This document shows positions 2,670-29,921 of a DNA stretch of 37,333 nucleotides, one piece after another. Origin of the DNA: Polyangiales bacterium (GTDB taxonomy: Bacteria > Myxococcota_A > Polyangia > Polyangiales > Ga0077539); contig JAXLYG010000005.1 of assembly GCA_046351535.1 (NCBI GenBank), positions 1 through 37,333 of the forward strand, read 5' to 3'. The stretch's first letter is position 1. Each line of letters starts with the position of its first letter. A program made the translations under genes and the position numbers. A model generated the notes under the pieces. The model was not told where the DNA came from. It did no database searches and saw only the letters and a program-made list of their open reading frames with translations.

Positions 2670-5429
2670 TCATCGCCAACCACCGTGCTCGAAACAACTG
2701 CGCGCGGGTTCGAGGAGCGGGGGAAGCGTCGCATCGCAGGTCACGCCGAGGTACGTGGCCGCGCGCGTAAGGCCGACGAACAGATGCCTGTCGAAGAGGT
2801 CAGGCAGACGGGCGGCGAGCTTGTCGACTCCGACGAAGAACACCGCTTCGAACTCGAACCCCTTCACGTGCTGCACGTCGAACACGCGGATGTCGTCATC
2901 GGTGCCCTTCAGCGTGCCGTCGGGGCACGCCACGATGTTGTGGCTATGGTCCGCCAGCAGCGGGCGCAGCGAATCGACCAGCGCGTTCATCCGCGCGGGC
3001 TCATCGACGAAGATCGCGATCGGCGGCACGAACCCGAGGGCCCGCTCGATCTCGACGATGCGCTCGCACAGCCACCCGGCCAGTTCATCCTGAGCACAGT
3101 GCTCCGCCAGCAGCGGCGCGATGTTCACGTCCTCGGCGGCTCTCGGCCGTTCACTGACCGAGCATGGCGCGCCTCGAATCCGCGCGAGAACGTCGGCCAG
3201 CTCCGCGAGCCGCCGACTCTGTCGATACCCGATCTTGATGTCTCGCTTTTCGAAGTCATCGACGACCCAGTCCACGTCTCGCTCGTCTTGAACGCCGCAC
3301 GCGGTGATCCGCTGCTGGTAGTCGCCGCTGACGAAGAAAGATCGAAACGCGGGGTGGGCGAGTTCGCACATGCTCGCGAGCTCCAGCGGTGAGAAGTCCG
3401 TCGCCTCGTCGACAAGGACCTGCGCGACGTACTCGCGCCGGACCGCGTCGAGCAGCGCGACGTTGGTGCTCGCGGTGTCGCGCAGAAGGCGCCCGTTGGC
3501 ACGCGCCAGAAACCCGCGCGCGTTTCGAAGCATCATGACGATCAGCAGATCGACCTCGGCCGGCTCAAGGCGCTTCTGGTCGATCTGTCGTTGTGCGTTC
3601 GGATCGAACCATGCCCCACGCTCCCGGAGAGAGACACGGCGAAAGCGCTGATACGCCGACGGGACCCTCTCGATGAGATTCCTGTGGGGCTCCGCGAGGA
3701 AGCGAAGCTGTCGCAACGTCGCCAGACTCTGTCCCAGCGGGAGGAGCGCCTTCGCGTCGGGGATCCGCGACGCGATCTCGTCGAGCACCGTCTTGCTACG
3801 TCCTCCTTTCAACACGAGGCGCGCGTCGAAGGCGGTACGCGCGGCGTCGTCGACGGCTCGTCGAAGCGCGCGAAGCGCGACATCTCGCGCGAGGCGCTCG
3901 TCTTTGAGATCCAGCGCAGCGACGGGTTCGGCGCGCTCGTCCTGCTCGTCTTCTTCGTCCTCCTCGTCCCGCTCGAGCGCCGACCGCAGCGAGGCGGCGA
4001 TGCGCTCGAGCATCTTGCCATCCGCATCGAGAATCCGTCTCACGTGCTCGCTGCGAGCATCGCTGACGTCCTGCTCCACCTTCTTGGACACGACCGCGAT
4101 GTCCTCGCGGAGCTCGGCAAGATCGAACAGGCGATCGAACTCGGGCGTCGCGCTTTCGAGGCGACGAATCACACGCCGCGCGAGCGCCTGTACGTTCTGG
4201 TCAGGGTCCGACGACATCACCTTCAGGGTTTCGACGCAACGCGCCTCGGCGTCGCGACGGAACCAGTCCTGGAAGGCTTCAAACAGTCGGATCAGGCCCT
4301 TGCTCGTGGGGTCGGCGAGCAAAGGCGAGGCATCGTCCTGCCGGAAACCACTGCGCTGCCCCGACCGAAGAATCCCCAGAACGTTGCGCGCGAGCCGCCT
4401 TCGCTCGTCGCTCCACGTTCTCACTCGCTCATCCGACGCGGCAACGCCTTCGCGTCCAAACGCTTCTTTCAGATACACCTTGAGCGCGGGGGTCGGAGTG
4501 AACAGCGCCCAGCCGCTCGGAATGGTGGCCGCGTCGCTCACGAGCGAGCGCTCCTCGTCGCTCCACTCTTCGAATCGGCTCTTCTGAGCGATCCGCTTGA
4601 TGAGGGTCGTCGTCTTCCCCGTGCCCGGCGGACCGGTGAGCGCGAGGCGCCTGTTCAGCGGAAGCCGGAAGATCTCGTCCTGATACTTGTCGAGGATAGC
4701 CTGATCACGCAGCGCAACGGTCGCGATGACCCTGCGGCGGCGCTCGTTGCGACGCTCCTCCTCGCGTCGGGCGACCGCTTCGATTTCGCGCACAAGGTTA
4801 TCGACATCCTGCGTGCGATCGATCCGCCGGAGGAACTCGCGGAGCGATGAGAGACGCGCGGGATCTTCATTCTCGGACTCGAAGACGTTGTCCCGGCCAT
4901 CCCAGCGCCCCTCCTCCAAGCGAGGTGTGAGCCGCAAGCGCTCGAGGATCTTGAAGGTCCGCACCCCTCCCGGTGTAGCGATTTCTGCTGTATCCCCTGC
5001 TTCGAAGGATGCGAGACGTGCGAGCGGCGCGCCCCCTCGGTATCCGAGAAGTACGCCATCTGGGACCCCTCCAATATCAAGGACACCTCTTCCCCCTCGA
5101 GAGAAGTAATAAACGCTCTGCCAGCCGCTCGATTCGTTCTCGACGCAAATGCGCGCGATAAAGGGCTCCGCCTTCATCTGCCTAGCGGATTCGTAGGCCT
5201 CGGTCTTCAGGGCCAGCGCCTGGTTCGTGTACCAGCTCGGCTCCGCGTCCCCGAACCCGTTGCCCGAGACCGGCGACGCGACCATCAACCTCCCCCCCGG
5301 GCCGAGTTCCTCCGCTCGCTTCGCAGCAGCCTCGGCAACCGACTTCAAATTGTCGACCACCACGCGGGCGACGGCCATCACCGCCTCGTCTTTCCCCTCG
5401 CTCGGCCTCGTCATCTGCGCCTCTCCCAC
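2670..5429 (-). CDS. Superfamily 1 UvrD/helicase-IV (HelD)-like DNA helicase, 919 aa
   Basis: Walker A GPPGTGKTT. Motif II-like LVDEATDFSPLE. UvrD-like C-terminal signature VKGFEFEAVFFVGVD...LFVGLTRAATYL. Long N-terminal domain before the P-loop as in HelD/helicase IV, plus an acidic insert (ERDEEDEEDEQDE). Markedly lower GC than flanks. Confidence 0.8.
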   Translation of the reverse strand: MGEAQMTRPSEGKDEAVMAVARVVVDNLKSVAEAAAKRAEELGPGGRLMVASPVSGNGFGDAEPSWYTNQALALKTEAYESARQMKAEPFIARICVENESSGWQSVYYFSRGGRGVLDIGGVPDGVLLGYRGGAPLARLASFEAGDTAEIATPGGVRTFKILERLRLTPRLEEGRWDGRDNVFESENEDPARLSSLREFLRRIDRTQDVDNLVREIEAVARREEERRNERRRRVIATVALRDQAILDKYQDEIFRLPLNRRLALTGPPGTGKTTTLIKRIAQKSRFEEWSDEERSLVSDAATIPSGWALFTPTPALKVYLKEAFGREGVAASDERVRTWSDERRRLARNVLGILRSGQRSGFRQDDASPLLADPTSKGLIRLFEAFQDWFRRDAEARCVETLKVMSSDPDQNVQALARRVIRRLESATPEFDRLFDLAELREDIAVVSKKVEQDVSDARSEHVRRILDADGKMLERIAASLRSALERDEEDEEDEQDERAEPVAALDLKDERLARDVALRALRRAVDDAARTAFDARLVLKGGRSKTVLDEIASRIPDAKALLPLGQSLATLRQLRFLAEPHRNLIERVPSAYQRFRRVSLRERGAWFDPNAQRQIDQKRLEPAEVDLLIVMMLRNARGFLARANGRLLRDTASTNVALLDAVRREYVAQVLVDEATDFSPLELASMCELAHPAFRSFFVSGDYQQRITACGVQDERDVDWVVDDFEKRDIKIGYRQSRRLAELADVLARIRGAPCSVSERPRAAEDVNIAPLLAEHCAQDELAGWLCERIVEIERALGFVPPIAIFVDEPARMNALVDSLRPLLADHSHNIVACPDGTLKGTDDDIRVFDVQHVKGFEFEAVFFVGVDKLAARLPDLFDRHLFVGLTRAATYLGVTCDATLPPLLEPARSCFEHGGWR

Positions 5430-5513
5430 CCTGCGTTCGGTGCGTCTGTCGATGCAATCCCAGGCAGAGGTTCGCGCCCCCCGGCCGCGACGGTCAACCA
5501 GAACGGTGCGCGT

Positions 5514-6194
5514 TCACCCCCGCCCGGCAGCGATCTCGCGGCCGACGATGCCCCTCAACGTCGCTAGAATCGCCCACGCTTCGAGCCGTTCGCTGAACGC
5601 ACGCGACCAGCTCACGGACATCGAACGGCCAGGGGAGTTTTCGATCGGACACTCCACGGCGCGGAGGAACTTCCACGTGTCTCCGACGGTGAAGCACCCG
5701 AAGCGCTCAATCGGGTCGGTAGAGCGGCTGAGGGCCCGCTCTGCCTCGATCGACGTGAGCATCGCTGCGAGCAGTTGGGCGCGCGGATCCGTCGCGTCGA
5801 TGCCGCGCTTGGTCTCTACGACGAGCAGAAACGGCGGTGTCGCTTGGCCCCCGACAATGCCCTCCCGTGCGAGGACGCCATCGACGACGCCCACGAGATC
5901 GACGCCGCCGACCGTCGCACGTACGGGAACCTGCGACCAGGCGCGAACACGCTCCTCCTCCGCGAGCACGAGCAGGGGGTAGATGGCGCGCGCCCAGAGC
6001 GTCGACTCGTTCACGGTGACCGTATCGAAGTCGCGCAACCACCCGAGCACAACGGCGAGTTCCTGCGCGCGTGCCGTTGGAATGACGGTGTTCTCGAGCT
6101 TCTTCCAGAGCTCGGAATCATCGATGGGACCGACGAGATGGACGAGCGTCTCGAGCTGCGACTCATCGAACTGAGCGAGCGAGAACGTGGGCAT
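5514..6194 (-). CDS. PD-(D/E)xK superfamily nuclease (HsdR N-terminal/restriction-endonuclease-like fold), 226 aa
   Basis: Ordered E...D...ExK motif: LAEEE, VDLVGVVDGVLA, PFLLVVETKRG followed by helix QLLAAMLTS, characteristic of the HSDR_N-type nuclease core. Immediately upstream (same strand, 84-nt gap) of the helicase. Lower GC than the genome background. Confidence 0.6.
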   Translation of the reverse strand: MPTFSLAQFDESQLETLVHLVGPIDDSELWKKLENTVIPTARAQELAVVLGWLRDFDTVTVNESTLWARAIYPLLVLAEEERVRAWSQVPVRATVGGVDLVGVVDGVLAREGIVGGQATPPFLLVVETKRGIDATDPRAQLLAAMLTSIEAERALSRSTDPIERFGCFTVGDTWKFLRAVECPIENSPGRSMSVSWSRAFSERLEAWAILATLRGIVGREIAAGRG

Positions 6195-6247: not shown

Positions 6248-7912
6248 TCAGTCTGCGAGGGGGAGCGAGAAGGCGAGGTGGAAGGGAATCCCCGCGAGGG
6301 AGGCGTGCGCGGACACCTGGAGCACGACGCTGCGGTGCTCCTTCTCGGTGATGACCTGCGCCTCGAGCTTCGCGGCCTCGGCCGCCGCGGGGAAGAGGAA
6401 CACCGACGCGGCCTGCTCGAAGAGCAGCTTCACCTCGGGCTCCGGCGCCTTCGGCGGGAGCTGCGCCAGCACCCACCGCGCGAAGCGCACGATGCGACCC
6501 GTGAGGATCTGCGCGGGCAGCGGGACGAGGTCTTCGCCGTCGCGCGTCGTGGGGACGCTCTTGAGCACCAGGTTGCCCGAGTTGCGGCGGCTCCCGAAGC
6601 CGATGATGCCGAGACGCGCGAGCGTGCTCTGCGCCGTGGCCGAGTAGAACGCCTCCGTGGGCACGAGCATCCCCGCGTCGCGTCCCGTGGGCAGCTCCCA
6701 CGAACCCGGCGAGGGCATCGAGACGTTCTCGCCCACGACCTGCGCGTACGCGCCCGTGCGGTGGTAGCTCGCCGCGAGCATCGCCGCGAGCGCCATCACG
6801 GGCGAGCCGAAGACCACGCGCTTGCCCGTGCCGGTGCCCTCCTGACGGAGCACCACGCGGTTCGAAACCACCGAGATCCAGCGCGACGCCTCGTCGTGAC
6901 GAAACGCCTTCCACTCCGCGGGGAGGCCGCCGTCTTCGTCCTCGATGCGCGAGGCCACGGCGCCCGCCTCGGCGACGCCGAAGAAGCGCGGCGTGACCCC
7001 GAGCACCACGGGGATGTCATGGTCCGCGCCCACGTCGGCCCACGCCGCGATGCCCTCGATGTCATCGACGGGATCGTGGACGAAGATCGCGTCGGGGAGC
7101 TCGTCCTGCTCGGTCTCGCCGAGGTCGGCGCGCACGGCCTCGATGGCCTTCGCGGGCGCGACGTCGAGGAGGTCGACGGCCATGCCCGAACCCGACGGCG
7201 CCGTGTCGATGAGGAGCTTCAGCCCGCGCCACGCGCTCTCGAGCGCGGCGACGCCGGGCTCCTTGAGCACCTCGACGGCGGTGGCGAACACCTCGGCCTC
7301 GATGAGGTCGCGCGCGGCCCTTCCCGCGGAGGGGAGCACCACGGGCGCAGAGGGCTCACGCACGGCCTTGAGAAACGATCCGATCGCGCTCGACGCCGAG
7401 GGCTGCGCCGCGGGCGCAGGCGCCGCCGTGAGGAGCTCGTCGACGGAGATGCCAGCCGCCGCGGGCGCCGCGGGCGACGCGCTCGAAGCGGACGTGGGCG
7501 CGCTCGCGGGCTTTGAAACACCGAGCTTCGCGCGGAGGGCTGCGGAGAGCTTCCCCTCGCCGACGAGCTCGACGACCTTCGCGATGGCGCTCTCGGGGTC
7601 GGGGCGCTTCGTGGGGTCGTTCTGGGCCAGCGATGCCGCGAGGGCCGAGAGGTCCTTGAGGACCGCGACGCCCGCGACGACCTCGCTCGTCTGGAACGAT
7701 TTGAACGTCGGAAACGACACCTCGATCACGCGGGTCTTGTCACCGCCGAGGCGGTCTTCGACCGTCGCGCGCGCGCTCACCTTCGCCGCTTCGAGCGCCT
7801 GCACGAGGTCGCCCGCGCCGAGGCGCACGCGGCGCCCCGATGGAGACGCGCTGAACGCGCCCGCGACGAGCCACCGGACGCTGACCCCAGTCTTCTGTTC
7901 GCTTGCTTCCAT
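6248..7912 (-). CDS. tssC: Type VI secretion contractile sheath protein, apparent TssB-TssC (VipA-VipB) fusion
   Basis: Residues ~200-554 carry the TssC/VipB N-terminal signature ESAWRGLKLLID and a downstream PRFFGV segment. Residues ~1-130 resemble TssB (VRWLVAGAFS like LPLKVLVVGDF, and VSFPTFKSFQTSEVV like LSFKSLKDFSPEGVV). The two parts are joined by an Ala/Pro/Ser-rich linker. Confidence 0.55.
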   Translation of the reverse strand: MEASEQKTGVSVRWLVAGAFSASPSGRRVRLGAGDLVQALEAAKVSARATVEDRLGGDKTRVIEVSFPTFKSFQTSEVVAGVAVLKDLSALAASLAQNDPTKRPDPESAIAKVVELVGEGKLSAALRAKLGVSKPASAPTSASSASPAAPAAAGISVDELLTAAPAPAAQPSASSAIGSFLKAVREPSAPVVLPSAGRAARDLIEAEVFATAVEVLKEPGVAALESAWRGLKLLIDTAPSGSGMAVDLLDVAPAKAIEAVRADLGETEQDELPDAIFVHDPVDDIEGIAAWADVGADHDIPVVLGVTPRFFGVAEAGAVASRIEDEDGGLPAEWKAFRHDEASRWISVVSNRVVLRQEGTGTGKRVVFGSPVMALAAMLAASYHRTGAYAQVVGENVSMPSPGSWELPTGRDAGMLVPTEAFYSATAQSTLARLGIIGFGSRRNSGNLVLKSVPTTRDGEDLVPLPAQILTGRIVRFARWVLAQLPPKAPEPEVKLLFEQAASVFLFPAAAEAAKLEAQVITEKEHRSVVLQVSAHASLAGIPFHLAFSLPLAD

Positions 7913-7930
7913 CGATGTGTTTCTCCGCTC

Positions 7931-9145
7931 TCAGAGGCCGCCGTCGATGTAGTCACCACGGAAGTCGTCACCGGCGTCGGGCACGTCTCCGTCGGGCGCA
8001 TCGGCCGACGCGTCCCTCGGCGCGCCCGCGTCACGGATGCGATCGACGCGGGCCTCCTGCGCGAGCACGCGGCTCCAGAGCGACGGATCGGACGAGACGA
8101 AGGTGTTGCCCCGCACGTACACCGCGCGGTCCTGGCCCGCGCGACGGTACGGACGCGGCGGGTCGTCGGGACGCGACGGGTCGCGGTCCTGCACCGTGAC
8201 GGTCTCACGCACCTGCACGCCGTCCTGGCGGACCTCGATGGAGGTCGCGAGCTGGAACGTCCGCCGCCACCCCGAGTCGAGGGTCACGTTCGCGTCCTTC
8301 TGGAACTCGAAGCGCGCCGGGCCGTAGCACCGCCCGCGCACGCTCCGGAGCGGCTCCTGAAGGAAGCGCGCCCCGCCCTGCGACGACGGCCGCAGGAGCA
8401 TCAGCCGCGCGGCGCGGCGACACGTCGAGCGGTCTTCATCGTTCTCGCAGATCTCGCCCTCGTGCACGAGCACGCGGCGCTCGCCCACCGTGTCGAGCCG
8501 CATGCGCGCCCGCTTGGGATAGTTGCGCACGGTGCCGATGGCGCGCACCACGACGCGCTGGTTGTCCGCGAACTCCGCGAGCGCGACGGGCCCCACGGCC
8601 TCGCCGTTCGAGAAGCGATCGGTGATCACCCACACGAGGCGCAGCGACGGCGCGATGCGCGTCACGATCACGTCGTTCTCGGTGATGGGCCGCTGCGGGA
8701 CCACGTCGCTCATGGGCACGCGGCAGCGCTCGCCCTCGGGCCGCATCTGGTTCACGGGCTCGTCGCAGTACTCCGAGCAGTTGCCGTTGAACTCGCGCCA
8801 CTCGACGGGCTGATTGGTGCAGTCGCGCGCGTTCGCCGCGGCGAAGCCCGGGGTGTAATCCCTCAGAAGAAGCCGCGCCCACTGATCGAAGCGCAGCGTG
8901 GGAACAGCCCCCGCGACGGCGCGCGGCCCCTCGATGGAGCACAGCGCCGGAATCGGGAGCGGCGCCTGCGGGCGCTGGTTGTTGTTGCTGCTGGAGCAGG
9001 CCCCGGCCAACGACGCGATGGCCAGCGCGGACGCCGCGCCGATCCCCATCAGTCGACCCCATGCGCTCGGATGCTGACTCATGGACCCTCTGTCTCTCCC
9101 CGTAGGAAATGCGAAACGAGACGCTCGCCGACGATCAGCCGGCAC
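7931..9145 (-). CDS. Secreted, probably lipid-anchored Cys-rich protein of unknown function in the T6SS operon (true start likely 9082 or 9049)
   Basis: Signal peptide MGIGAASALAIASLAGAC followed by Ser/Asn-rich linker. Multiple Cys. Acidic C-terminal tail (DAPDGDVPDAGDDF). Diverse, protein-like composition. The antisense ORF on the opposite strand is His/Arg-rich junk. Confidence 0.5.
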   Translation of the reverse strand: MPADRRRASRFAFPTGRDRGSMSQHPSAWGRLMGIGAASALAIASLAGACSSSNNNQRPQAPLPIPALCSIEGPRAVAGAVPTLRFDQWARLLLRDYTPGFAAANARDCTNQPVEWREFNGNCSEYCDEPVNQMRPEGERCRVPMSDVVPQRPITENDVIVTRIAPSLRLVWVITDRFSNGEAVGPVALAEFADNQRVVVRAIGTVRNYPKRARMRLDTVGERRVLVHEGEICENDEDRSTCRRAARLMLLRPSSQGGARFLQEPLRSVRGRCYGPARFEFQKDANVTLDSGWRRTFQLATSIEVRQDGVQVRETVTVQDRDPSRPDDPPRPYRRAGQDRAVYVRGNTFVSSDPSLWSRVLAQEARVDRIRDAGAPRDASADAPDGDVPDAGDDFRGDYIDGGL

Positions 9146-10610
9146 CTATACGCCGAGGCCCGGCGTCGGCGAAGTTTTCTCCGAGGGCCCTCGCGTAGGC
9201 CTTCGCGAAGACCTTTCCGAAGACCGCCGTGGTGAGCTCCCTGTCCTCCGAGAGGTCGTCGTGCTCCTTGAGGTACTGGCGCCAGAAGAGCCCCGTCTTG
9301 AAGGGCCACACCTTCCAGAACCCCTCGGATTTCTCGTCGGCCACGCGCGCGATTCGCTCGGGCGAGAGCCGCTCTGAGAGGAGCCTCCGAACGCCCTCCA
9401 TGAGCCCGCTGAGGAGGGCCACCTGGTGCGTCATGATCTCTGCGTACTGGCTCGTGAGGTTGTGCGCCCTCACCTGCGCGTCCTGCGCGTGCCAGTCGAG
9501 CAGGTACGCGAGCACGGCGCGCGGGTCGGTGGCCTCTTCGACGGGCGAGGGCTGCGCGCTCTTGCGCGACCCGCCGACCATCTCGGCCTCGAACTGCTCG
9601 TGCCCCTGACGCAGCCCCACGAACGCCGTCGCGAAGGCGTCGAGCGACGTGAGGATCCGCACGAGGAAGCCCTCCATCTCCTCGGGCGTCTGCGGCGGCG
9701 CCTGCGCCGGGAGGAGGGCCTGCGCGAGCCGCGCGATGAGCTGCGAGCCCGCGCCGCCGCCAACACCCGCGGGCAGCGCAACGCCCTGCGACTGCGCGAG
9801 CGCCTGCATCTGCGGCTCGTTCGCGGCGTCGGGAAACTGCTCCAGAAAGAGCTGCACGGCCGCGGGCACGAGATGCGGCGGCGTCTGCTGGAGCACGCCG
9901 TAGAGCGTGGCGTAGAGGTCGTTCCACGACTGGCGGTAGGCCGTGACGCGACCGCCGAGCGCGAGGATCTGCCCCCGCGTCGGACCGAGCTGCCCGGCGC
10001 CCGCCGCGGGCCTCGGAGCCTGCTGCGCCTGCGGCGCCTGCGGCGACGGACCGCCCGTGATCCCCGCGAGGATGGCGCTCCCGTCGATCATCATCGTCGA
10101 CGATCCGCCGTCGCCCAGGGAGGGATGTCCCCCCATGAGCCCCTCGGACATCATCGTGTGCTCGCCGACGCCGGGGTCACCGCCCGACGGCACCATGCTC
10201 AGCCGCTGCTGCGCGGCCATCGCCTCGGAGACGTGCGCGCGCGAGAACGTGATGCGCACCGCGCCGACGCGGAGGTCTTCGGTGCCCGTGAGCCCGACGG
10301 GCGCGTTCTTCTCGAGCCTCCGACCGTTGCAGGTCGTGCCGTTGGTCGACCCGAGGTCGTAGAAGGCCGCGCTGTTGTCGTCGAACTGCACCACCGCGTG
10401 CCACTGCGACACGAAGGGGCGCGCGATCGAGAGGTCGTTCAGGGGGTTGCGCCCGATGCGAACGGGCGACCGCGTGAACGTGTACGTGCGCGACGAGCCG
10501 TCGTCGAGGCTGTCTACACGTACAAGCAGGGCGAGCATCGGGCGACCGGAGGTCCTTTCGGGGAGCGAACGCGTCGTGTCGGGGCGCCCCAACGCGGTCG
10601 AGTTCGTCAC
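9135..10610 (-). CDS. tagH: T6SS-associated FHA-domain protein (TagH/Fha-like); true start possibly 10538
   Basis: N-terminal FHA domain (YTFTRSPVRIGRNPLNDLSI...GSTNGTTCNGRRL). Long Gln/Pro/Ala-rich linker and a C-terminal domain as in TagH. Sits between clpV and the sheath gene. Confidence 0.65.
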   Translation of the reverse strand: MTNSTALGRPDTTRSLPERTSGRPMLALLVRVDSLDDGSSRTYTFTRSPVRIGRNPLNDLSIARPFVSQWHAVVQFDDNSAAFYDLGSTNGTTCNGRRLEKNAPVGLTGTEDLRVGAVRITFSRAHVSEAMAAQQRLSMVPSGGDPGVGEHTMMSEGLMGGHPSLGDGGSSTMMIDGSAILAGITGGPSPQAPQAQQAPRPAAGAGQLGPTRGQILALGGRVTAYRQSWNDLYATLYGVLQQTPPHLVPAAVQLFLEQFPDAANEPQMQALAQSQGVALPAGVGGGAGSQLIARLAQALLPAQAPPQTPEEMEGFLVRILTSLDAFATAFVGLRQGHEQFEAEMVGGSRKSAQPSPVEEATDPRAVLAYLLDWHAQDAQVRAHNLTSQYAEIMTHQVALLSGLMEGVRRLLSERLSPERIARVADEKSEGFWKVWPFKTGLFWRQYLKEHDDLSEDRELTTAVFGKVFAKAYARALGENFADAGPRRIGAG

Positions 10611-10740: not shown

Positions 10741-13422
10741 CTACGCCGCGGGGGCCTCGACCTCGCGGAACTCGATGCGCCATCCGCCGTCGGGCGAGAG
10801 CGACACGTCGAGGTGCTTGGGCAGCGGGCCCTCGGCCATGCGCTCGAGGATCACGCGCGACACCGCGGGGATCAGCGAGCCTCGCATGATGTGCTCGACG
10901 TTGCGCGCGCCGGTCTCGGCCTCGGTGCAGCGGCGCGTGATCTCGTCGATGAGCTCCGCGGCGAAGTGCGTCTCGACGCGGTGGCTCGTGTAGAGGCGCT
11001 TGCCGAGGCCCTTGAGGCGCATCTCGGTGATCTCGCGCATGATCGTCCGCGGGATGGGCGCGTAGGGGATGATCGTCATGCGCGCGAGGAGCGCGGGCTT
11101 GAAGTGCTTCGAGAGCACCGGGCGGATCTGGGCGACGACCTCGTCGACGGGGGGCACGTCGTCGCGGTCGTAGAGCTTCATGATCGCGTCGGTGGCGAGG
11201 TTCGACGTGAGGATGATGATCGTGTTGCGGAAGTTGATCTGACGACCCTCTCCGTCGGCGCACGAGCCCTTGTCGAACACCTGGTAGAACAGGTTCATGA
11301 TGTTGACGTCGGCCTTCTCGCACTCGTCGAGGAGCACCACGGAGTACGGGCGCTGACGCACCGCCTCGGTGAGCACGCCGCCCTCGCCGTAGCCCACGTA
11401 GCCCGCCGACGCGCCGATGAGCCTCGACAGCGCCGCCTGCTCCTGGAACTCCGACATGTTGATCACGGTCATGAAGCGCTCGCCGCCGTACATGGCCTCG
11501 GCGAGGGCGATGGCCGTCTCGGTCTTGCCGACGCCCGACGGGCCCACGAAGAGCAGCACGCCCACGGGCTGGTTCGGGTTCGACACGCCCGCCTGCGACG
11601 CGCGGATGGTCTCCGCGACGATCTTCATGGCGTGGTCCTGGCCGCGCACGCGCTCGCGGAGCTTGTCCTCGAGGGTGAGCAGCGTGGCGACGTCGTCCTT
11701 CTGCATCTTGCTGACGGGGATGCCCGTCCAGTTCTCGATGATGCGCGCGACGGTGTCGGGGTCGACGTCGGCGGAGACGAGCGCGGGCTTGCTCTTGACC
11801 TTGTCGTAGGCCTCGATCGAGTCGGTGAGGGCCTTGCGCGCGGCCTCGGCCTCCTCCGCGGGCGTGTCCTTCGTGAGCGCGTGCACCCTGGCGCGCGCCT
11901 CTCGCACGAGCTTCACGGCGTCGCGCTCGGCGTTCCACTTCGCGGTGAGCTCGTCGATCGACGACTTCGTGCGGTCGATCGTCGTGAGGAGCTTCTCGTA
12001 GTGCTCCTGATCGATCTTGAAGCCCGACGACACGTCGCGGTCGAGGGCCTCCTTCTCGCGCAGCGACGCGGCGAGCGTCACGTCGAGGTTCACGAGGTCC
12101 TCGGGGCGCGCGTCGAGGTTGATCTTCACGCGCGCGGTGGCCGTGTCGAGCAGGTCGACGGCCTTGTCGGGCAGGAGCCTCCCCGAGATGAAGCGGTTCG
12201 AGAGCTTCACCGCCGCCACGATGGCCTCATCGCGGATCGTGATGTTGTGCGCCTTCTCGAACACGGGCCTCAGCCCGCGGAGCATGAGAATGGCGTTCTC
12301 CTCCGAGGGCTCGTCGACGGCCACGGGCTGAAAGCGCCGCGCGAGGGCCGCGTCTTTCTCGAAGTACTTCTTGTACTCCGACCACGTCGTCGCCGCGATG
12401 GTGCGGAGCTCGCCGCGCGCGAGCGCCGGCTTGAGGATGTTCGCCGCGTCGGAGCCGCCCTGCTGACCGCCCGCGCCGATGATGGTGTGCGCCTCGTCGA
12501 TGAAGAGCACGATGGGCTTGGGCGAGCCCTTCACCTCGGAGATGACGTTCTTCATGCGGTTTTCGAACTCGCCCTTGACGCCCGCGCCCGCTTGAAGCGC
12601 GCCGAGGTCGAGGTTGAGGAGCTCGACGTTCTTGAGGTGCTCGGGCACGTTGCCCGCCACGATCTCGAGCGCGAGGCCCTCGGCGAGGGCGCTCTTGCCG
12701 GTGCCCGGATCGCCCACGATGATCGGGTTGTTCTTGCGGCGCCGCGAGAGGATGTCGATGAGCTGACGGATCTCGGTGTGGCGCCCGAAGATGGGGTCGA
12801 TCTTGCCGTCGCGGGCCTTCTGCGTGAGGTTCTCGGTGAAGCGCTGGAGGTTCTCGGCGCCCGCCGTGGGACCGCCCTGCGCGCCGGGGACGCCCGCGCC
12901 GCTGGCCGACTGCGTCGCGCCCGACGAGGCCACGCCGACCTCGATGGACTCCTTCGAGGGCGCCACGATGTCGAGGAACTCGCGCTTGAGCGCGTCGCGC
13001 GGGATCGCTTCGAGCTCGGGGAAGGTCTCCGCCGAGTAGCGCCCCGGGTTGTTGATGAACTGCCACACGAGCGCGCCCGTGCGGAGCTTCGTCGCGTCGG
13101 TCGAGAGCGAGGCGAGCGTCCAGGCGTCTTCGCAGAGCTGAAAGATGCTCTCCGAGAGCACGGGCTTGCCCGCGTTGCCCGTGCGCAGACGGCTCAGGGC
13201 CTTCTGGATGCGCCCCACGAGCCGCGTGCGGTCCTGCTCGAACTGGTGGAGGATCCGCGCGAGGTCGCCGTCCTCCTTCTCCGCGAGCACGAGGAGCACG
13301 TGCTCGACCATCACCTCGTAGCCCTGCGAGCTGACCACCTTCGCGGCGGCGCCGTTGAGGGCCTCCTTGCAGGTGGGGGTGAGCCGATCGATGAGGACCT
13401 TCCTGTCGACGAGCAGCGCCAT
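10741..13422 (-). CDS. clpV: T6SS AAA+ ATPase ClpV (TssH)
   Basis: 893 aa. ClpV-type N-domain. Two AAA+ modules with Walker A GDPGTGKSA and GPSGVGKTE, Walker B FIDEAH and VLLDECEKA, and a sensor region. Lies downstream of tssF-tssG as in canonical T6SS loci. Confidence 0.9.
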   Translation of the reverse strand: MALLVDRKVLIDRLTPTCKEALNGAAAKVVSSQGYEVMVEHVLLVLAEKEDGDLARILHQFEQDRTRLVGRIQKALSRLRTGNAGKPVLSESIFQLCEDAWTLASLSTDATKLRTGALVWQFINNPGRYSAETFPELEAIPRDALKREFLDIVAPSKESIEVGVASSGATQSASGAGVPGAQGGPTAGAENLQRFTENLTQKARDGKIDPIFGRHTEIRQLIDILSRRRKNNPIIVGDPGTGKSALAEGLALEIVAGNVPEHLKNVELLNLDLGALQAGAGVKGEFENRMKNVISEVKGSPKPIVLFIDEAHTIIGAGGQQGGSDAANILKPALARGELRTIAATTWSEYKKYFEKDAALARRFQPVAVDEPSEENAILMLRGLRPVFEKAHNITIRDEAIVAAVKLSNRFISGRLLPDKAVDLLDTATARVKINLDARPEDLVNLDVTLAASLREKEALDRDVSSGFKIDQEHYEKLLTTIDRTKSSIDELTAKWNAERDAVKLVREARARVHALTKDTPAEEAEAARKALTDSIEAYDKVKSKPALVSADVDPDTVARIIENWTGIPVSKMQKDDVATLLTLEDKLRERVRGQDHAMKIVAETIRASQAGVSNPNQPVGVLLFVGPSGVGKTETAIALAEAMYGGERFMTVINMSEFQEQAALSRLIGASAGYVGYGEGGVLTEAVRQRPYSVVLLDECEKADVNIMNLFYQVFDKGSCADGEGRQINFRNTIIILTSNLATDAIMKLYDRDDVPPVDEVVAQIRPVLSKHFKPALLARMTIIPYAPIPRTIMREITEMRLKGLGKRLYTSHRVETHFAAELIDEITRRCTEAETGARNVEHIMRGSLIPAVSRVILERMAEGPLPKHLDVSLSPDGGWRIEFREVEAPAA

Positions 13423-13467: not shown

Positions 13468-14586
13468 TTAGGGTGTCTTCGCCTCGGAGCTTGCGGGCTC
13501 CGACGCGGTGGAAGATGTCGCTTGCGGGACCTGCACGATCATGTGCACCTCGCGGTCTGCACCGACGGTGAGCCACGAGTCGAAGCCGAGGCGTGATGCA
13601 TCTTTGGGAGAAGACCCGAGGCGCATCGACGGGGCCTCGCCGGGCGCGAGGATGAGCTCCACGTCGAACTCCAGCGGGTCGCGGACGTAGAGCGTCACCA
13701 CCTCGCGGAGCAGCTCCAGCCCGGCTTTGCCCGGCTGGAGCTCTTCGAAGGCCTTGCGGCGCAGGGGTCCGAGGATCACCCGGAACTTCCCCCCGCGGTC
13801 GAAGACCTTGCGGCCCACGGTGGCGTCTTCGCCGAGCGTGGTGTTCGCCACGCCGAGCCGCAGGAGCTGCCGCTCCTCGATGGACACCCAGCGCCCCACG
13901 AACTGATCGACGGAGACGGTGGCGCCGTTGAGGGTCTTCGCGAGCACGTCGGAGAGCACCGCGACGAGGCCCTCGGAGGTGCGCGCCCTGCGCGCCATGA
14001 GCGGCGCCAGACGCAGGAGGTGAGGGATGCTGAGGCTCGTCGGGAGGCGATCGCCGAAGCCGTCGAAGCCCGCGAGGCACAGCGACCGGCGAGACCACGG
14101 GTCCCGCGAGTCCGAGGTGTAGTCCGTGAGGAACGAGTACTTCGTGTGCGCGCGGTAGAAGAGCGACAGCACGCGGTGGTGAAACAGGTCGAGGAACTCG
14201 CGCTGCGCGGGGTGATCGGCGTCCTCGTGGATGACGTCTTCGACGAAGTACGTCGGCAGCGGCGAGACCGTGCCCGTGAGCCCGAGAAAGGTCGTCGTGA
14301 CCTCGTAGTAGGGCTCCTCGTTGGCGCCGTGCGCGACGTCGTCGACCTTGCGCTTGCGCACGACGATGTTGGTCACGTCGCTGGCGCTGAAGGCGAGCGA
14401 CGGGTCGTGCCTGAAGCGAATGGCCTCGCGGCCCACGGGCCCCGCGTCGCCCACGCGCACGGCGTTGGGCGTCGCGCGCTCGAGCAGCTCGACGGCGCGA
14501 TAGAACCCGACCCGCTGCGGCGACGCGAGGAGCGCCGTCAGGCTCGGCGTCACAGAATCGTCTGTCTTCCGCTCTTCGCCGTCCAC
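13468..14586 (-). CDS. tssG: T6SS baseplate subunit TssG (ImpH/VasB family)
   Basis: 372 aa. N-terminal GFYRAVELLER motif typical of TssG. Overlaps the 3' end of tssF by 37 nt. Confidence 0.75.
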   Translation of the reverse strand: MDGEERKTDDSVTPSLTALLASPQRVGFYRAVELLERATPNAVRVGDAGPVGREAIRFRHDPSLAFSASDVTNIVVRKRKVDDVAHGANEEPYYEVTTTFLGLTGTVSPLPTYFVEDVIHEDADHPAQREFLDLFHHRVLSLFYRAHTKYSFLTDYTSDSRDPWSRRSLCLAGFDGFGDRLPTSLSIPHLLRLAPLMARRARTSEGLVAVLSDVLAKTLNGATVSVDQFVGRWVSIEERQLLRLGVANTTLGEDATVGRKVFDRGGKFRVILGPLRRKAFEELQPGKAGLELLREVVTLYVRDPLEFDVELILAPGEAPSMRLGSSPKDASRLGFDSWLTVGADREVHMIVQVPQATSSTASEPASSEAKTP

Positions 14587-16301
14587 TGGTACTCCGCCTG
14601 GGAGGGGTGCGCCTTGGCCTTGAGTTCGCTGAACGTGTTGATGCCCGCGTGCGCCGCGAGCACCTCATCGACCACCGAGGCGAAGAGGTAGAGGTCCCCT
14701 TCGCCCGCGAAGCCCTGCTCGTCGAGCTCGATCGTGGTGCCCACGCCGCGCACGGGGACGCCCTTCACGAGGCGCTCGACGGGCCGCGTGCCGACGCCGC
14801 GGATGGCCTCGATGCGCAGGCGATTCGCGCGCCCCGCCTGACGGTCGACGGCCGCTTGAAAGTTGTAGAGGTCGAGCACCGAGCGCAGCGCCTCGGCGTC
14901 GGCGAGGGAGCGGTAGTTGAGCGCGAGGTGCGACACGAGGCGCCAGTGCAGCGACTTGCCGAAGGGCGGGCGCACGGGCACCGACACGGGGGTGATGTTC
15001 TTGAAGCGCGCGAAGGGCGGAGAGCCCGGCGCGGGCACCGAGATGTCACCGAGGCGCAGCTGCGCGGGCAGCGCGCGGTTGGTCACCGTCACCTCGATGG
15101 AGAGGGTCTCCTCCACGGGGTTGTTGGGCACGTCCCTCGGCGTGTGGATCGAGAGCCACGTGTCGATGCCGTCGTCGAGGGGCGAGGTCGAGCGCCGCAC
15201 GCGGTAGTACGCGGGGACGTCCTCGGGCGTGAGCGCGTGCAGGAAGTCGAAGAAGGGCCGGTACTCCTTGCGGTCGGTGCGGCCCGCTTGCAGGCCCGTC
15301 ACGCGGTCGATGGAGTACAGCTCCATGTGCCGCGGATCGATCTCCGACGCGCGGAGGAGGTACTCGTGCGCGTTGGGGTCGACCTTGATGGGGTCGGCGT
15401 CCGTCGCGAAGAGGTTGATCACCGGCGAGCAGTGCAGCTTGATGACGTTCTTGTCGATCTGCGCGGGCAGCGGCGGCGGTCGCTCGAAGTTGAGCACGAT
15501 CTCGAAGCGGTCTTCGGCGCGGGCCGCGAAGGCGTCGAGGCCGCGGATGTCGAAGAAGTAGAACTTCGACGGGAGCGTGAAATACTCCTGCAGGAGCCGG
15601 TATCCGCCGGGGGCGAACTTGGGCCACGGGAGGAGCGCGCACTCGGGGTCGAAGCCCACCGAGCGGATCGCGCGCTTGCCGATGTCGACGCCCTTGGCGC
15701 CCGCCGAGAGCCCCCGCACGCTGACGTTGCGGCAGTAGTGCGAGAGCCAGAGAAAGAGCATCGACGCCGTGCCCGGGTCGCCGTGCAGAAAGATGCGGAT
15801 CCCGTCGGGGTGAAAGACCGCGCTGCGACCGGCTTCATGCGTCTGGAGCTGGATGCGGATGGCGGGCTGCGACGGCTTCGACTGGTCGAGGATGACGTCT
15901 TGAAGCGTGACCGGCAGGAGGTCGACGTCGGCCGAGGTGCGGAAGCGGCACGCGGTCCCCTCGGCGGGCGAGGCCGCGAGCTCGGTGCCGCGCGCGATCT
16001 TCTGGCGCGTGCGGAGGGCGCCCGCGACGGGGGTGAACTCCACGATCGAGCACGCGGGCAGCGTCCGCAGGTAGTGCGGGAGCAGCAGGTCGCAGAGCGT
16101 GTGGATGATCTCGGGGACGTCGTCGTCGAGGCGCTCCCGCACGCGCGCCGTGAGGAACGAGAAGCCTTCCAGCAGGCGCTCGACGTCGGGGTCACCGCTG
16201 CGCTCCGCGAGCAGGCCGGCGACGGCGGGGTAGGCCCTGCCGAACTCGCGCCCGAGCTCGCGGAGGTACGTGAGCTCGCTCTGGTAGTACTTGCTGAACA
16301 C
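14550..16301 (-). CDS. tssF: T6SS baseplate subunit TssF (ImpG/VasA family)
   Basis: 583 aa. N-terminus MFSKYYQSELTYLRELGREFGRAYPAVAGLL matches the TssF consensus (YY..EL.YLRELG.EFA..HP). Confidence 0.8.
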   Translation of the reverse strand: MFSKYYQSELTYLRELGREFGRAYPAVAGLLAERSGDPDVERLLEGFSFLTARVRERLDDDVPEIIHTLCDLLLPHYLRTLPACSIVEFTPVAGALRTRQKIARGTELAASPAEGTACRFRTSADVDLLPVTLQDVILDQSKPSQPAIRIQLQTHEAGRSAVFHPDGIRIFLHGDPGTASMLFLWLSHYCRNVSVRGLSAGAKGVDIGKRAIRSVGFDPECALLPWPKFAPGGYRLLQEYFTLPSKFYFFDIRGLDAFAARAEDRFEIVLNFERPPPLPAQIDKNVIKLHCSPVINLFATDADPIKVDPNAHEYLLRASEIDPRHMELYSIDRVTGLQAGRTDRKEYRPFFDFLHALTPEDVPAYYRVRRSTSPLDDGIDTWLSIHTPRDVPNNPVEETLSIEVTVTNRALPAQLRLGDISVPAPGSPPFARFKNITPVSVPVRPPFGKSLHWRLVSHLALNYRSLADAEALRSVLDLYNFQAAVDRQAGRANRLRIEAIRGVGTRPVERLVKGVPVRGVGTTIELDEQGFAGEGDLYLFASVVDEVLAAHAGINTFSELKAKAHPSQAEYQWTAKSGRQTIL

Positions 16302-16449: not shown

Positions 16450-17208
16450 ATGACGGCGATGACCCTTCGAGCGTGGCTCCGCGAGGCGCCCTTCACCCTG
16501 GCGATGTCGTCGGGCTTCTTCGGCTTCTACGCCCACGCGGGCGCCCTCACGGCCCTCGCCGCCGCGGGCTTCACCCCCTCGGGCTACGCGGGCTCCTCCG
16601 CGGGCGCCCTGGTCACGGGGCTCAGGGCCGGAGGGTGCTCCCTCGACGAGCTGCGTCAGACCCTCTCGTCGCTTCGAAGAGAAGACTTCTGGGACCCCGG
16701 ACCCGGTCTGGGCCTCCTCCGCGGGCGGCGCTTTCGCGAGCGCCTCGAGGCGATGGTTCGGCACCGAACGATCGAGAGCTGCCCGACGCCCTACACGGCC
16801 TCGGTCTTCGAGCTCTCCGCGCGCCGCACGCGCAGCCTCCACCGCGGATCGCTCACGACGGCCATCCACGCCTCGTGCGCGGTGCCGGGGCTCTTTCACC
16901 CCGTGCGCATCGAAGGCTCGCTCTACGCCGACGGAGGCATCGCCGATCGCCCCGGGATCCACGGCCTCCACTACGGGAGCCGCGTGCTGCACCACCACCT
17001 CGCGTCGCGCTCTCCGTGGCGCCGCGAGGGGAGCGCCTCGACGCTCCCGCCGAAGCGGAACAACCTCGTGGCGGTCTCGATCGAGGGGATCACGCGCCTC
17101 AACCCCTTCGCCCTCGACCGCGGCATGAAGGCCTTTCGCGAGGGTGAAGACGGCATGCGCCGCGCCCTCGACCTGCCCGTGCACGACGGCCTCGTGTCGG
17201 TGCGATAG
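16450..17208 (+). CDS. Patatin-like phospholipase (PNPLA family)
   Basis: GxSxG nucleophile motif (GSSAG) and catalytic Asp in a DGG motif (YADGGIAD). The N-terminal oxyanion region is SSGFFGFYAHAG, a degenerate form of GGGxRG. Confidence 0.7.
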   Translation: MTAMTLRAWLREAPFTLAMSSGFFGFYAHAGALTALAAAGFTPSGYAGSSAGALVTGLRAGGCSLDELRQTLSSLRREDFWDPGPGLGLLRGRRFRERLEAMVRHRTIESCPTPYTASVFELSARRTRSLHRGSLTTAIHASCAVPGLFHPVRIEGSLYADGGIADRPGIHGLHYGSRVLHHHLASRSPWRREGSASTLPPKRNNLVAVSIEGITRLNPFALDRGMKAFREGEDGMRRALDLPVHDGLVSVR

Positions 17209-19600: not shown

Positions 19601-20536
19601 ATGAACGTTTCCCGACTCAACGCTCCGCGCGGTACGCGCTGGAACGTCCTCTTCATGCTGACCGCACTCGGCGGGTCTGCTCTCCTTGCAGGCTGCGGTG
19701 ATTCCACGCCGACCACCACCCCGGACGCCGCCGCTGACACGGTGACGACCGACACGCCTGCGACCGACACGCCCGCGACTGACACGCCCGCGACCGACAC
19801 GCCCGCGACCGACACGCCCGCGACCGACACGCCCGCGACCGACGTGCCTGCGACCGACACGCCGGCCACCGACGTGCCTGCGACCGACACGCCCACCACC
19901 GACGTGCCCGTCACCGACACGCCTGCGACCGACACGCCTGCGACCGACACGCCTGCGACCGACACGCCCGCGACCGATGCGCCTGCGACCGATGCGCCTG
20001 CGACCGACGCTGCGACCGACGCCGCGACCGACGCCGCGACCGATGCGCCTGCGACGCCGACCTGCATGGCGTACTGCGCTGCGATCCAGAGCGCCTGCAC
20101 GGGCGACAACCAGCAGTACAGCTCGATGGAGTCCTGCCTCGGCGCGTGCGCCAACTTCGCCGTCGGAACCGCGGGCGCCACGTCGGGCAACACCCTCGCG
20201 TGCCGCACCTACCACGCGGGCGCCGCCGCGACGGGACCGGCCACCCACTGCACGCACGCCGGCCCCGGCGGCGACGGCCCCTGCGGCACCAACTGCGAGG
20301 GCTTCTGCACCATCGCGCAGGGCGTCTGCACCGGCGCGAACCAGCAGTTCGCCAGCATGGCCGTGTGCATGACGGCCTGCGCCGGCTTCGCCACGGGCAC
20401 CCGCTACAACAGCATGCAGACGTCGGGAAACACCTTCGCCTGCCGCCTCTATCACCTCTCGGTCGCCGCCTCGAGCGCAGCCTCGGCCACGACCCACTGC
20501 CCGCACATCGTCGCCGCGTCGCCCGTCTGCCGCTGA
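19601..20536 (+). CDS. Lipoprotein with an (A)TDTP pentapeptide tandem-repeat linker and two duplicated six-Cys C-terminal domains
   Basis: Signal MNVSRLNAPRGTRWNVLFMLTALGGSALLAGC (lipobox LAGC). About 21 TDTPA/TDVPA/TDAPA repeats. Two homologous ~75-aa Cys modules (C..YC..I...CTG.NQQ..SM..C...CA.FA.GT......SGNT.ACR.YH). Confidence 0.65.
   Translation: MNVSRLNAPRGTRWNVLFMLTALGGSALLAGCGDSTPTTTPDAAADTVTTDTPATDTPATDTPATDTPATDTPATDTPATDVPATDTPATDVPATDTPTTDVPVTDTPATDTPATDTPATDTPATDAPATDAPATDAATDAATDAATDAPATPTCMAYCAAIQSACTGDNQQYSSMESCLGACANFAVGTAGATSGNTLACRTYHAGAAATGPATHCTHAGPGGDGPCGTNCEGFCTIAQGVCTGANQQFASMAVCMTACAGFATGTRYNSMQTSGNTFACRLYHLSVAASSAASATTHCPHIVAASPVCR
19741..20060. repeat. Coding tandem repeat, 15-bp unit (accgacacgcc[c/t]gcg) x ~21 with degenerate 12-bp units at the 3' end
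   Basis: Directly visible periodicity gaccgacacgcccgcgaccgacacgcccgcg... encoding TDTPA. The antisense ORF 19537..20208 (SVAG repeats) is its mirror artefact. Confidence 0.8.
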
Positions 20537-20581
20537 GCGACAGCACCTCAGCCCCCATTCTCGCGGGCTGAGCGCCCCCCT

Positions 20582-21199
20582 TCACCCGCCGTCGAGACGC
20601 TGCGCTTCGAGCGTCGTGATCGTCAGCGAGTACCCCATCCAGCCGTTGCGAAACTCCACCACGCGCGGGGGCGTGTCGCCCTCCATGCCGCCCTCGTAGC
20701 GCACGTCGATGGTGCTCGCGGGAACGCCGTCGAGCCGTCGGAAGTGACGCTCCATGAGCCTCCCCGCGCGCCACACCTCGCGGATCTCTTCACCATCGCG
20801 CGTGCCTCTGCGCTCACCGTCGACGGCGGGCGCGGGGCCGAGCCCGATGAAGAGCGTGCGGTGGATGTCGAGCAGCATGTACCGCGGCGGAAAGGGGAGC
20901 TCGCCCGGCATGTGCGACGTGAAGCTCACCTCGGTTCCGCGCTGCTGGAGCACGAACGCGCGCGTGCCGAAGGGCGTGAGGCCGAGGAGCGTGAGCGTGT
21001 CTCCCTGCTTCTGGAGCACGGCGTCGAAGGACACGTCGCGCCCCGGATAGTGCGCCTCGACGCGCTGCCGAAACATGAACGCGCCGCGGATCTCCGACGT
21101 GGGGAGGAGCGTCCCCGGATGCGTCACGACAGGCATCGCGGGCGGCCGTCGCGAGGCGCACGCGAGCGCGAGACACGCGGCGAGGATCGATCGCTTCAC
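20582..21199 (-). CDS. DUF3261-like outer-membrane lipoprotein (aryl-polyene-cluster-associated), start at GTG 21199 overlapping the MMPL stop (GTGA)
   Basis: Internal start VKRSILAACLALAC gives lipobox ILAAC. About 205 aa mature protein. The upstream part of the listed ORF is junk overlapping the MMPL gene. Sits in a conserved MMPL/LolA neighbourhood. Confidence 0.5.
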   Translation of the reverse strand: MKRSILAACLALACASRRPPAMPVVTHPGTLLPTSEIRGAFMFRQRVEAHYPGRDVSFDAVLQKQGDTLTLLGLTPFGTRAFVLQQRGTEVSFTSHMPGELPFPPRYMLLDIHRTLFIGLGPAPAVDGERRGTRDGEEIREVWRAGRLMERHFRRLDGVPASTIDVRYEGGMEGDTPPRVVEFRNGWMGYSLTITTLEAQRLDGG

Positions 21200-23562: not shown

Positions 23563-23577
23563 CGGGGCGTCGGGGTC

Positions 23578-24303: not shown

Positions 24304-24670
24304 CGGGGGTCTCCATGAGCAGCTCGCCGGCGGGCGTGGTGGTGACGAGGACGGTGCGCGCCCGCGCGACGCGGCGGTCGTGCGTGACGCTGTGGAGGTC
24401 GTAGAAGACCACGATGCGCTGCTCGACGTCGCCGAAGCGCGCCGTCACGCGCACGCGCTCGCCGTAGCGCAACGGGCGCATGTAGCGGCAGTGCGCGTCG
24501 ACGACCATCATGTGAAGGCCGAGCTCCATGAGGTCGGGCACGTCGAGGCGGTGGACGCGCATGAGCTCGGTGCGCGCGAGCTCGAGGTACTTGAAGTAGT
24601 TGCCGTGCCACACGACGCGCAGCCCGTCGACGTCGTGAAAGGGCACGGTGAGCTCGATGGAGGCGCTCAC
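24275..24670 (-). CDS. Hotdog-fold acyl-CoA/acyl-ACP thioesterase (4HBT/YbgC-like)
   Basis: About 131 aa from GTG start VSASIELTVPFHDVD...HGNYFKYLE, with conserved Asp and HGN typical of 4HBT thioesterases. GTGA overlap with the upstream acyltransferase stop. The longer listed ORF's N-terminus is Arg-rich junk. Confidence 0.6.
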   Translation of the reverse strand: MSASIELTVPFHDVDGLRVVWHGNYFKYLELARTELMRVHRLDVPDLMELGLHMMVVDAHCRYMRPLRYGERVRVTARFGDVEQRIVVFYDLHSVTHDRRVARARTVLVTTTPAGELLMETPDAIRSRIVA

Positions 24671-27305: not shown

Positions 27306-27325
27306 CTGCGTAGGGCGGAGTCCCT

Positions 27326-29030: not shown

Positions 29031-29036
29031 GGCGGA

Positions 29037-29870: not shown

Positions 29871-29921
29871 CGGCGTGTCGTCCAGCGCGGCGCGAGTGAT
29901 ATCACACGCGCTCCGCGGCCG

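Follow-up and report, generated by a model that had tools for sequence, protein, structure and literature searches.

In canonical T6SS, the sheath proteins TssB and TssC are encoded by separate genes. The window, by which we mean the whole stretch of 37,333 nucleotides that was analysed, contains a single ORF in which a TssB-like and a TssC-like part appear to be joined into one chain. This raises two questions, namely whether the fusion is natural and, if so, whether its product takes the place of the TssB/TssC sheath or exists besides it.

The gene and its operon

The 554-aa ORF described in the earlier note, including all of the motifs quoted there, is indeed present in the translation. It starts with ATG and is the last gene of an operon on the minus strand, which runs in the order tssF, tssG, clpV, fha, X and fused gene:

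14550 to 16301, minus strand: tssF, the first gene of the operon in the window (PF05947, 547 bits)
13468 to 14586, minus strand: tssG (PF06996, 295 bits)
10741 to 13422, minus strand: clpV (tssH; Pfam AAA_2, AAA_lid_9, ClpB_D2-small and Clp_N)
9135 to 10610, minus strand: fha, TagH/Fha-type (Pfam FHA domain and T6SS_FHA_C), conserved 5' of X and the fused gene
7931 to 9082, minus strand: gene X, a conserved lipoprotein with an ACSS lipobox, six or more conserved Cys and a C-terminal tail that is acidic
7921 to 7926, minus strand: Shine-Dalgarno sequence GGAGAA, 8 nt 5' of the ATG of the fused gene, as read from the sequence
6248 to 7912, minus strand: the fused TssB-TssC-like gene (MXAN_0113 family, class 1), 554 aa
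6248 to 6250, minus strand: stop codon of the fused gene

The stop codon of gene X (7931-7933) lies 18 nt from the fused gene. The product of gene X has a length of 383-404 aa (the longest possible ORF begins at 9145) and is all-beta, with a fold for which no match was found. At the other end of the operon, a divergent patatin-like gene occupies the place of tssE 5' of tssF, and none of tssB, tssC, tssE, hcp, vgrG, tssK and tssJLM was found within the 37 kb of the window; the T6SS operon of this lineage appears to be truncated at tssF. A search of the window for the sigma-54 promoter TGGCAC-N5-TTGC (one mismatch allowed) gave no match, a scan for sigma-70 promoters and intrinsic terminators around the fused gene returned nothing, and the hairpin 3' of its stop codon did not stand out against shuffled sequence (z=0.43). 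PADLOC gave zero matches for the fused protein and the product of gene X.

A natural fusion conserved in Myxococcota

Scored by itself, the fused protein exceeds the cutoff of PF05943, the VipB N-terminal domain (60.5 bits versus 27), and stays below those of PF05591 (VipA; cutoff 24, versus 18.4 bits for the complete protein and 22.2 bits if only the N-terminal 135 aa are scored), TIGR03358 (TssB; 13 bits versus 97) and TIGR03355 (TssC equivalog; 45 bits versus 271.5), while the C-terminal gpW/gp25-like domain PF18945 gave no match in it at E≤1. A profile of 22 N-terminal modules of the family, compared with the PDB, matches M. xanthus TssB (5urw_1A, E=1.3e-13), VipA (~1e-11) and HsiB1 (1e-7), and PF05591 is matched by 21 of these 22 modules (best E=2.9e-10), which upholds the TssB-like N-terminal module that had been proposed. 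The TssC-like body is likewise established, both by its PF05943 score and by its end-to-end alignment with canonical TssC, and the full-length family profile matches both chains of the same sheath entries (3e-26 for TssC/VipB and 1.5e-11 for TssB/VipA). The AlphaFold2 model, for which 38 family sequences were used, has a pLDDT of 88 and a pTM of 0.85, with values below 50 only in the first eight residues and in junction stretches within residues 141-192. As modelled, the fused protein has the full three-domain fold of a sheath protomer.

The homolog search returned 113 clusters (at 90% identity), mostly full-length at ~525-600 aa, and all homologs with an organism name belong to the Myxococcota. 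A scan of genomes, both isolates and MAGs, gave about 80-84 loci in Myxococcaceae, Archangiaceae, Nannocystaceae, Sandaracinaceae and Polyangiales, one of which (L005, a Myxococcota MAG) is 98% identical to the window; some genomes, including those of Archangiaceae, have a second, shorter fused paralog. By these searches the family is conserved and Myxococcota-specific. Its member in M. xanthus DK1622 is MXAN_0113, annotated as 'hypothetical protein', while the NCBI names of other members are inconsistent (sheath 'large subunit', 'small subunit' or 'domain-containing protein'). A literature search found no paper on a natural TssB-TssC fusion, MXAN_0113 or LILAB_08185.

It could be argued that the ORF is a mis-assembled or frameshifted tssB plus tssC, or a pseudogene, which would agree with its low Pfam and NCBIfam scores. 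This is ruled out by the same architecture and length in 113 clusters and 80-84 loci, where the TssB-like and TssC-like parts lie in one frame in all family members, the TssB-like part being no separate polypeptide of ~160 aa. The motifs are moreover conserved over the full length, the fold is predicted with confidence, and the GC3 of 0.92 is like that of the other real genes of the window (70% GC), so that the chance of an artefact or remnant is practically nil. The fusion is therefore natural, as the earlier note had proposed, and does not stem from a missing stop or frameshift; the gene is confirmed as a genuine, conserved and uncharacterised TssB-TssC fusion.

Anatomy of the fused protein

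The fused protein was mapped with MAFFT, the family being aligned to a concatenation of the two canonical proteins from related clusters, TssB with 161 aa and TssC with 491 aa. The fusion is end-to-end and, as had been noted, shorter than the canonical pair (554 aa versus 161+491 aa), with ~18% identity over 545 aligned positions; beyond the short Ala/Pro-rich insertion, the TssC-like part sets in with the N-terminal helices that are natural to TssC. Along the gene, its parts are as follows:

7508 to 7912, minus strand: TssB/VipA-like module, residues 1-135 (family profile, PF05591, MAFFT map and comparison of N-termini)
7445 to 7507, minus strand: Ala/Pro/Ser-rich low-complexity junction, residues 136-156 (family alignment and pLDDT)
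7418 to 7444, minus strand: motif ISVDELLTA, residues 157-165 (profile alignment to residues 2-14 of 5mxn_A, and MAFFT)
6251 to 7417, minus strand: TssC/VipB-like body, residues 166-554, including ESAWRGLKLL, with three canonical TssC loops absent
6260 to 6283, minus strand: C-terminal beta-strand PFHLAFSL, residues 544-551 (DSSP strand E544-551, and alignment)

The TssB-like module begins its core strand, VRWLVAGAF, at residue 12 and reaches the natural C-terminus of TssB (GKLSAALRAKLGV versus the canonical ARDKLLAELGA). In the MAFFT map, TssB residues 1-19 (MAKEGSVAPKERVNIVYKP), which comprise the N-terminal donor strand and linker, have no counterpart in the fused protein, and positions 5-97 of the family profile align to residues 25-125 of TssB (5urw_1A). 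The 11 residues that precede the core strand are polar and unconserved, with a pLDDT of 40. An error in the start codon that would hide an N-terminal arm was considered and ruled out, as there are only six in-frame codons 5' of the ATG. In the canonical sheath, each subunit donates both a TssB N-terminal and a TssC C-terminal beta-strand linker to the ring nearer to the baseplate (PMC5813253). The second of these has been kept: PFHLAFSLPL matches the C-terminal donor strand of canonical TssC (ASFTLSLVGKL), with PFxLxFxLPL as the pattern in the family. Further canonical segments that are missing are TssB 46-51 and TssC 147-166, 247-262 and 368-383, besides two small gaps; the three TssC segments are loops of 16-20 aa each.

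The Ala/Pro-rich linker that had been described between the two modules is seen in the family alignment as well, where both its length and its sequence vary. It is predicted to be disordered (pLDDT <50 at residues 141-156), and relative to the canonical pair the insertion proper covers residues 139-144 in the MAFFT map. [quoted passage not shown] In V. cholerae VipB, the N-terminal helix LLDEII binds ClpV (PMC4239648). From this resemblance we infer that GISVDELLTAAP is a putative peptide of the fused protein for binding the ClpV N-domain; the motif is only moderately conserved in the family and is modelled with low confidence.

Coexistence with the canonical sheath

The conserved physical linkage of the fused gene to T6SS core genes is found across divergent genomes. 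The order tssF-tssG-clpV-fha-X-fused occurs in seven complete loci with target identities down to 34%, and the smaller module fha-X-fused, in which X lies directly 5' of the fused gene, in ~26 distinct loci. In five loci (L019, L055, L059, L066 and L073) tssE lies just 5' of tssF, preceded by hcp in L055, L059 and L066. L073 starts with the 3' end of a canonical tssC (85% identical to TssC of Nannocystaceae), followed by tssE-tssF-tssG-clpV-fha-X-fused. The Nannocystaceae have another arrangement, with canonical tssB, canonical tssC, tssA, the fused gene and hcp in this order in eight complete loci (L042, L027, L029, L035, L044, L045, L062 and L065); L042, for example, contains clpV, tssB (PF05591, 186 bits), tssC (PF05943, 409 bits, and PF18945, 151 bits), tssA, the fused gene and hcp. 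Four further loci, cut by contig ends, have tssA-fused-hcp.

In Myxococcaceae and Archangiaceae the fused gene lies as an orphan far away from the T6SS cluster. In 10 loci (Myxococcus/Corallococcus, Polyangiales and one locus of the class-2 fusions discussed below), the ~10-kb flanks of the fused gene contain an FHA-sigma54 activator. Ser/Thr kinases and PP2C also often adjoin it, kinases being abundant in Myxococcota in general. A 371-aa neighbour in M. fulvus is of doubtful homology to X (20% identity, no tblastn match).

The canonical TssB and TssC of M. xanthus are MXAN_4807 and MXAN_4808, with MXAN_4813 also belonging to its canonical T6SS (PMC4239648). The same genome thus has a canonical sheath, the structure of which has been solved (PDB 5URW/5URX), plus the fused MXAN_0113. 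Because of the co-occurrence in Nannocystaceae, L073 and M. xanthus, the fused protein is additional to the normal sheath wherever this can be checked. This scope is that of the family, i.e. of related clusters and genomes, the organism of the window being covered for 37 kb only. Since related bacteria have the canonical two-gene sheath alongside, the fused protein is most likely accessory rather than a single-chain replacement, and we regard it as very probably an accessory paralog of the canonical T6SS. The interpretation in the earlier note is therefore to be divided at the level of the family: its structural part, the fusion, stands, whereas its functional part, a single-chain sheath in place of TssB and TssC, finds no support, in view of the co-occurring canonical pair and the missing arm. 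Similarly, the survey of related Myxococcota that the note had called for shows fused and split sheath genes to occur together, not as alternatives, wherever this can be checked.

The two kinds of sheath gene also differ in divergence. In the same pairs of genomes, the mean identity is 59% for the fused protein versus 82% for canonical TssC, and at the deepest splits it is 40-45% versus 72-75%. Judged by these sequence comparisons, the fused gene is under purifying selection, yet about twice as divergent as canonical TssC.

Related fusions and other sheaths

A HMMER search with the family profile against 1.84 billion representatives gave at least 320 representative clusters at E≤1e-30, and ~100 of the matches listed belong to the MXAN_0113 family (class 1). 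A second class consists of proteins of 600-650 aa that are covered end to end by the family profile and exceed the thresholds of both Pfam domains, with scores as high as 267 bits for VipB and 77 bits for VipA. Its hosts are Ca. Manganitrophus noduliformans and other Nitrospiria, Rhodothermaceae and a Gammaproteobacteria MAG. Like class 1, these are natural single-chain TssB-TssC proteins whose genes lie either at the margin of T6SS loci (in the order clpV-vgrG-PAAR-toxin/immunity-HEAT-fused) or by themselves as orphans, one of them without any T6SS context, and their neighbours include an FHA-sigma54 activator, PP2C and a kinase; in the four contexts that were read, no fha-X partner genes were found beside them.

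Unlike class 1, class-2 fusions are full length, closer to the canonical proteins and have kept an N-terminal arm-like strand. Class 2 and canonical TssB have ~25-35 residues before the core, in the form of a strand, versus only 3-15, polar residues in class 1, and the loss of the arm is therefore specific to the MXAN_0113 family. Mean identities are 19% for class 1 versus canonical, 23% for class 1 versus class 2, and 31% for class 2 versus canonical TssC. In a rough NJ tree, with saturated distances and a narrow canonical sample, class 1 forms a long branch inside a class-2 grade, apart from canonical TssC. Because of this saturation, the tree is no more than suggestive of a single origin for the two classes.

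Compared with the canonical sheath (TssB/TssC or VipA/VipB; PDB 5URW/5URX, 3J9G, 5N8N), which consists of two chains, the fused protein is one chain and lacks the TssB arm, three TssC loops and the PF18945 match. The sheath proteins T4 gp18, pyocin R2, Afp2/3/4 and Pvc2/3/4 are single-chain as well, but these are no fusions of TssB and TssC and both of their arms are present; the likeness of the fused protein to such phage and extracellular injection-system sheaths is at the level of the fold only (9-13% identity). In functional terms, the closest analogue of an arm-less subunit is the engineered VipA-N3 sheath with its lengthened linker, in which rings are joined only via the VipB C-terminal linkers, and which assembles without contracting (PMC5797969, PMC5813253). 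VipA-N3 is, however, an artificial insertion of three residues in a two-chain sheath, whereas the fused family is a natural paralog from which the arm has been deleted.

Possible role of the fused protein

The explanation that fits best overall is that the fused protein is a conserved paralog that is accessory to a canonical T6SS and is not its main sheath; taken as a whole, with the mode of action outlined below, we give this explanation a probability of roughly 60%. A point against the accessory reading is that no canonical tssB, tssC, tssE or hcp lies within the 37 kb of the window. This same absence, together with the predicted co-transcription with tssF, tssG and clpV, would favour a protein that acts as the sole sheath here, i.e. 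one that takes the place of TssB and TssC, forms a contractile polymer around Hcp and relies on the ClpV of its own operon for recycling; the full sheath fold, the C-terminal donor strand and the ClpV-helix-like motif would also suit such a protein. As tssE and hcp are absent from the window too, the genes for the remainder of the machine must in any case lie elsewhere. The family furthermore co-occurs with canonical tssB/tssC wherever this can be checked, it lacks the N-terminal arm on which contraction and the linkage between rings depend, and the fused protein has diverged extremely, in contrast to the canonical TssF, TssG and ClpV. A sole single-chain sheath is therefore improbable.

How an accessory paralog might act is a more tentative matter. 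It would have its place in or on the TssBC lattice, which is plausible for a protein that has lost the N-terminal arm but retains the fold and acceptor domain as well as the C-terminal arm and the ClpV-helix-like motif. The fused protein would dock onto the lattice by its remaining C-terminal arm and acceptor sheet, and could then form or seed a specialised ring, either at the baseplate-proximal end, at the distal end, or as a ring at which the propagation of contraction is interrupted. Like the normal sheath, the fused protein would be a substrate that ClpV recognises and removes, and its expression or use would probably be tied to the neighbouring genes for Fha, Ser/Thr kinases or the FHA-sigma54 activator. 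To this specific co-assembly mechanism we would give somewhat less than an even chance: with an identity of 18%, the fused protein may have lattice interfaces that do not fit TssBC, the region of the ClpV motif is of low model confidence and moderate conservation, and the orphan position in Myxococcaceae and Archangiaceae is just as compatible with a regulator or an independent role.

Such a regulator would be a soluble mimic of the sheath that stays outside the lattice and binds ClpV, TssA, Hcp or the baseplate, thereby gating, timing or limiting the assembly or disassembly of the sheath under control of Fha and kinases. In line with this are the reduction from two polymerisation arms to one, the faster evolution relative to the structural sheath, the conserved fha-X-fused module, the ClpV-helix-like motif on a flexible linker and, in Myxococcus, an orphan gene that has kinases and an FHA-sigma54 activator as neighbours. 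Nevertheless, a three-domain fold and a C-terminal donor strand that are conserved this far exceed what a simple binding decoy needs, and a mimic of this kind seems rather unlikely to us. An independent polymer, a tube or filament of its own that is possibly non-contractile and functions apart from T6SS firing, would agree with orphan copies far from T6SS genes, with the short second paralogs in Archangiaceae, with the class-2 fusion that has no T6SS context, and with the VipA-N3 sheath, which assembles via VipB linkers alone and is non-contractile. In several deep lineages and again in class 2, however, the fused gene is linked to T6SS genes, which makes a function apart from T6SS very improbable. 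In its boldest form, the accessory reading would make the MXAN_0113 family a single-chain, arm-less sheath subunit that is dedicated to a terminal or 'stop' ring, baseplate-proximal or distal, and determines the point at which the sheath begins, terminates or ceases to contract, as part of a wider superfamily of natural TssB-TssC fusions in several phyla; this we put forward as speculative and rather doubtful.

Implications

To our knowledge, current T6SS models all treat the sheath as a homogeneous copolymer of TssB and TssC, and we know of specialised sheath paralogs otherwise only from extracellular injection systems. If the accessory reading is true, an additional protein with the sheath fold, from which the very arm that joins rings and governs contraction has been lost, would amount to an unrecognised layer of T6SS sheath architecture or control. 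In practical terms, the inconsistent database names of the family could mislead automated T6SS typing, and the natural fusion shows that the C-terminus of TssB and the N-terminus of TssC can be tethered, which may be of use for engineered single-chain sheaths. The fused gene is encoded with T6SS core genes across the whole phylum, including the model organism M. xanthus, for which in-situ T6SS structures reportedly already exist.

Surroundings of the fused gene in the window

Directly 3' of the gene for the TssB-TssC fusion lies a stretch of lower GC content (0.64-0.67, versus about 0.70), in which two genes are found that are both absent from all 84 related loci, i.e. the loci carrying relatives of the fused gene:

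2670-6194, minus strand, lower-GC stretch
within 2670-6194, minus strand, PD-(D/E)xK nuclease-like gene, 226 aa (PADLOC PDLC01472, E = 3e-7)
within 2670-6194, minus strand, UvrD-like/AAA protein, 919 aa (weak GajB and NERD+UvrD matches)

The stretch has the appearance of a defence or mobile island that was inserted here.

At the other end of the operon, a patatin-like phospholipase gene (16450-17208, plus strand) is located divergently upstream of tssF, at the position that is held by tssE in related operons. The same gene is present in L005, the Myxococcota MAG locus that is 98% identical to the window. It might encode a lipase effector of the T6SS, or be a mere marker of a rearrangement breakpoint.

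Further along, a biosynthetic cluster of the lipid or polyketide type, similar to aryl-polyene-type clusters, is without relation to the TssB-TssC fusion:

about 20500-32000, DUF3261, MMPL, a LolA-like protein, a lipid-A-type acyltransferase and a glycosyltransferase
about 20500-32000, further content: a FAD halogenase-like enzyme, an ACP, an acyltransferase and two ketosynthases

Related loci and other fusions

In Nannocystaceae, the TssA encoded beside the fused gene is of unusual length (~1050 aa; L042:6590-9748): three ImpA_N domains, with Pro/Ala-rich linkers between them, precede a VasJ domain. Equivalents occur in L027, L029, L044, L062 and L065. In one Myxococcales MAG, clpV is separated from fha within the operon by an insertion (L017:3922-7165) that contains a response-regulator-type sigma-54 activator, a histidine-kinase fragment and an Hsp20 gene.

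Two loci carry family members and yet have non-myxobacterial labels, namely L057 (record title Comamonas sp. KCTC 72670) and L060 (a Nocardioides sp. MAG). The proteins neighbouring the family member in L057 share 91-96% identity with those encoded at L002, the locus of Corallococcus macrosporus (formerly M. fulvus) HW-1. L060 is a contig-end fragment. Both labels likely reflect mislabelling or binning contamination.

A shorter version of the fused gene (~430-480 aa, 31-33% identity to the 554-aa protein) is found in Archangiaceae, i.e. in Archangium, Vitiosangium, Hyalangium, Cystobacter and Melittangium (loci L074, L075, L078 and L080-L083; proteins P0105, P0108, P0113 and P0195). It is a second copy in at least three Archangiaceae genomes, being those from which both loci were recovered, and P0195, the sole short member that was given a Pfam scan, keeps the TssB-like module.

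Class-2 natural TssB-TssC fusions are 600-650 aa long (P0249, P0254, P0316 and others; loci L085-L090), score above threshold for both Pfam domains and have kept the N-terminal arm. Their hosts are Ca. Manganitrophus and other Nitrospiria, Rhodothermaceae and one Gammaproteobacteria MAG, where the genes are either orphans or located at the edge of vgrG/PAAR/effector modules.
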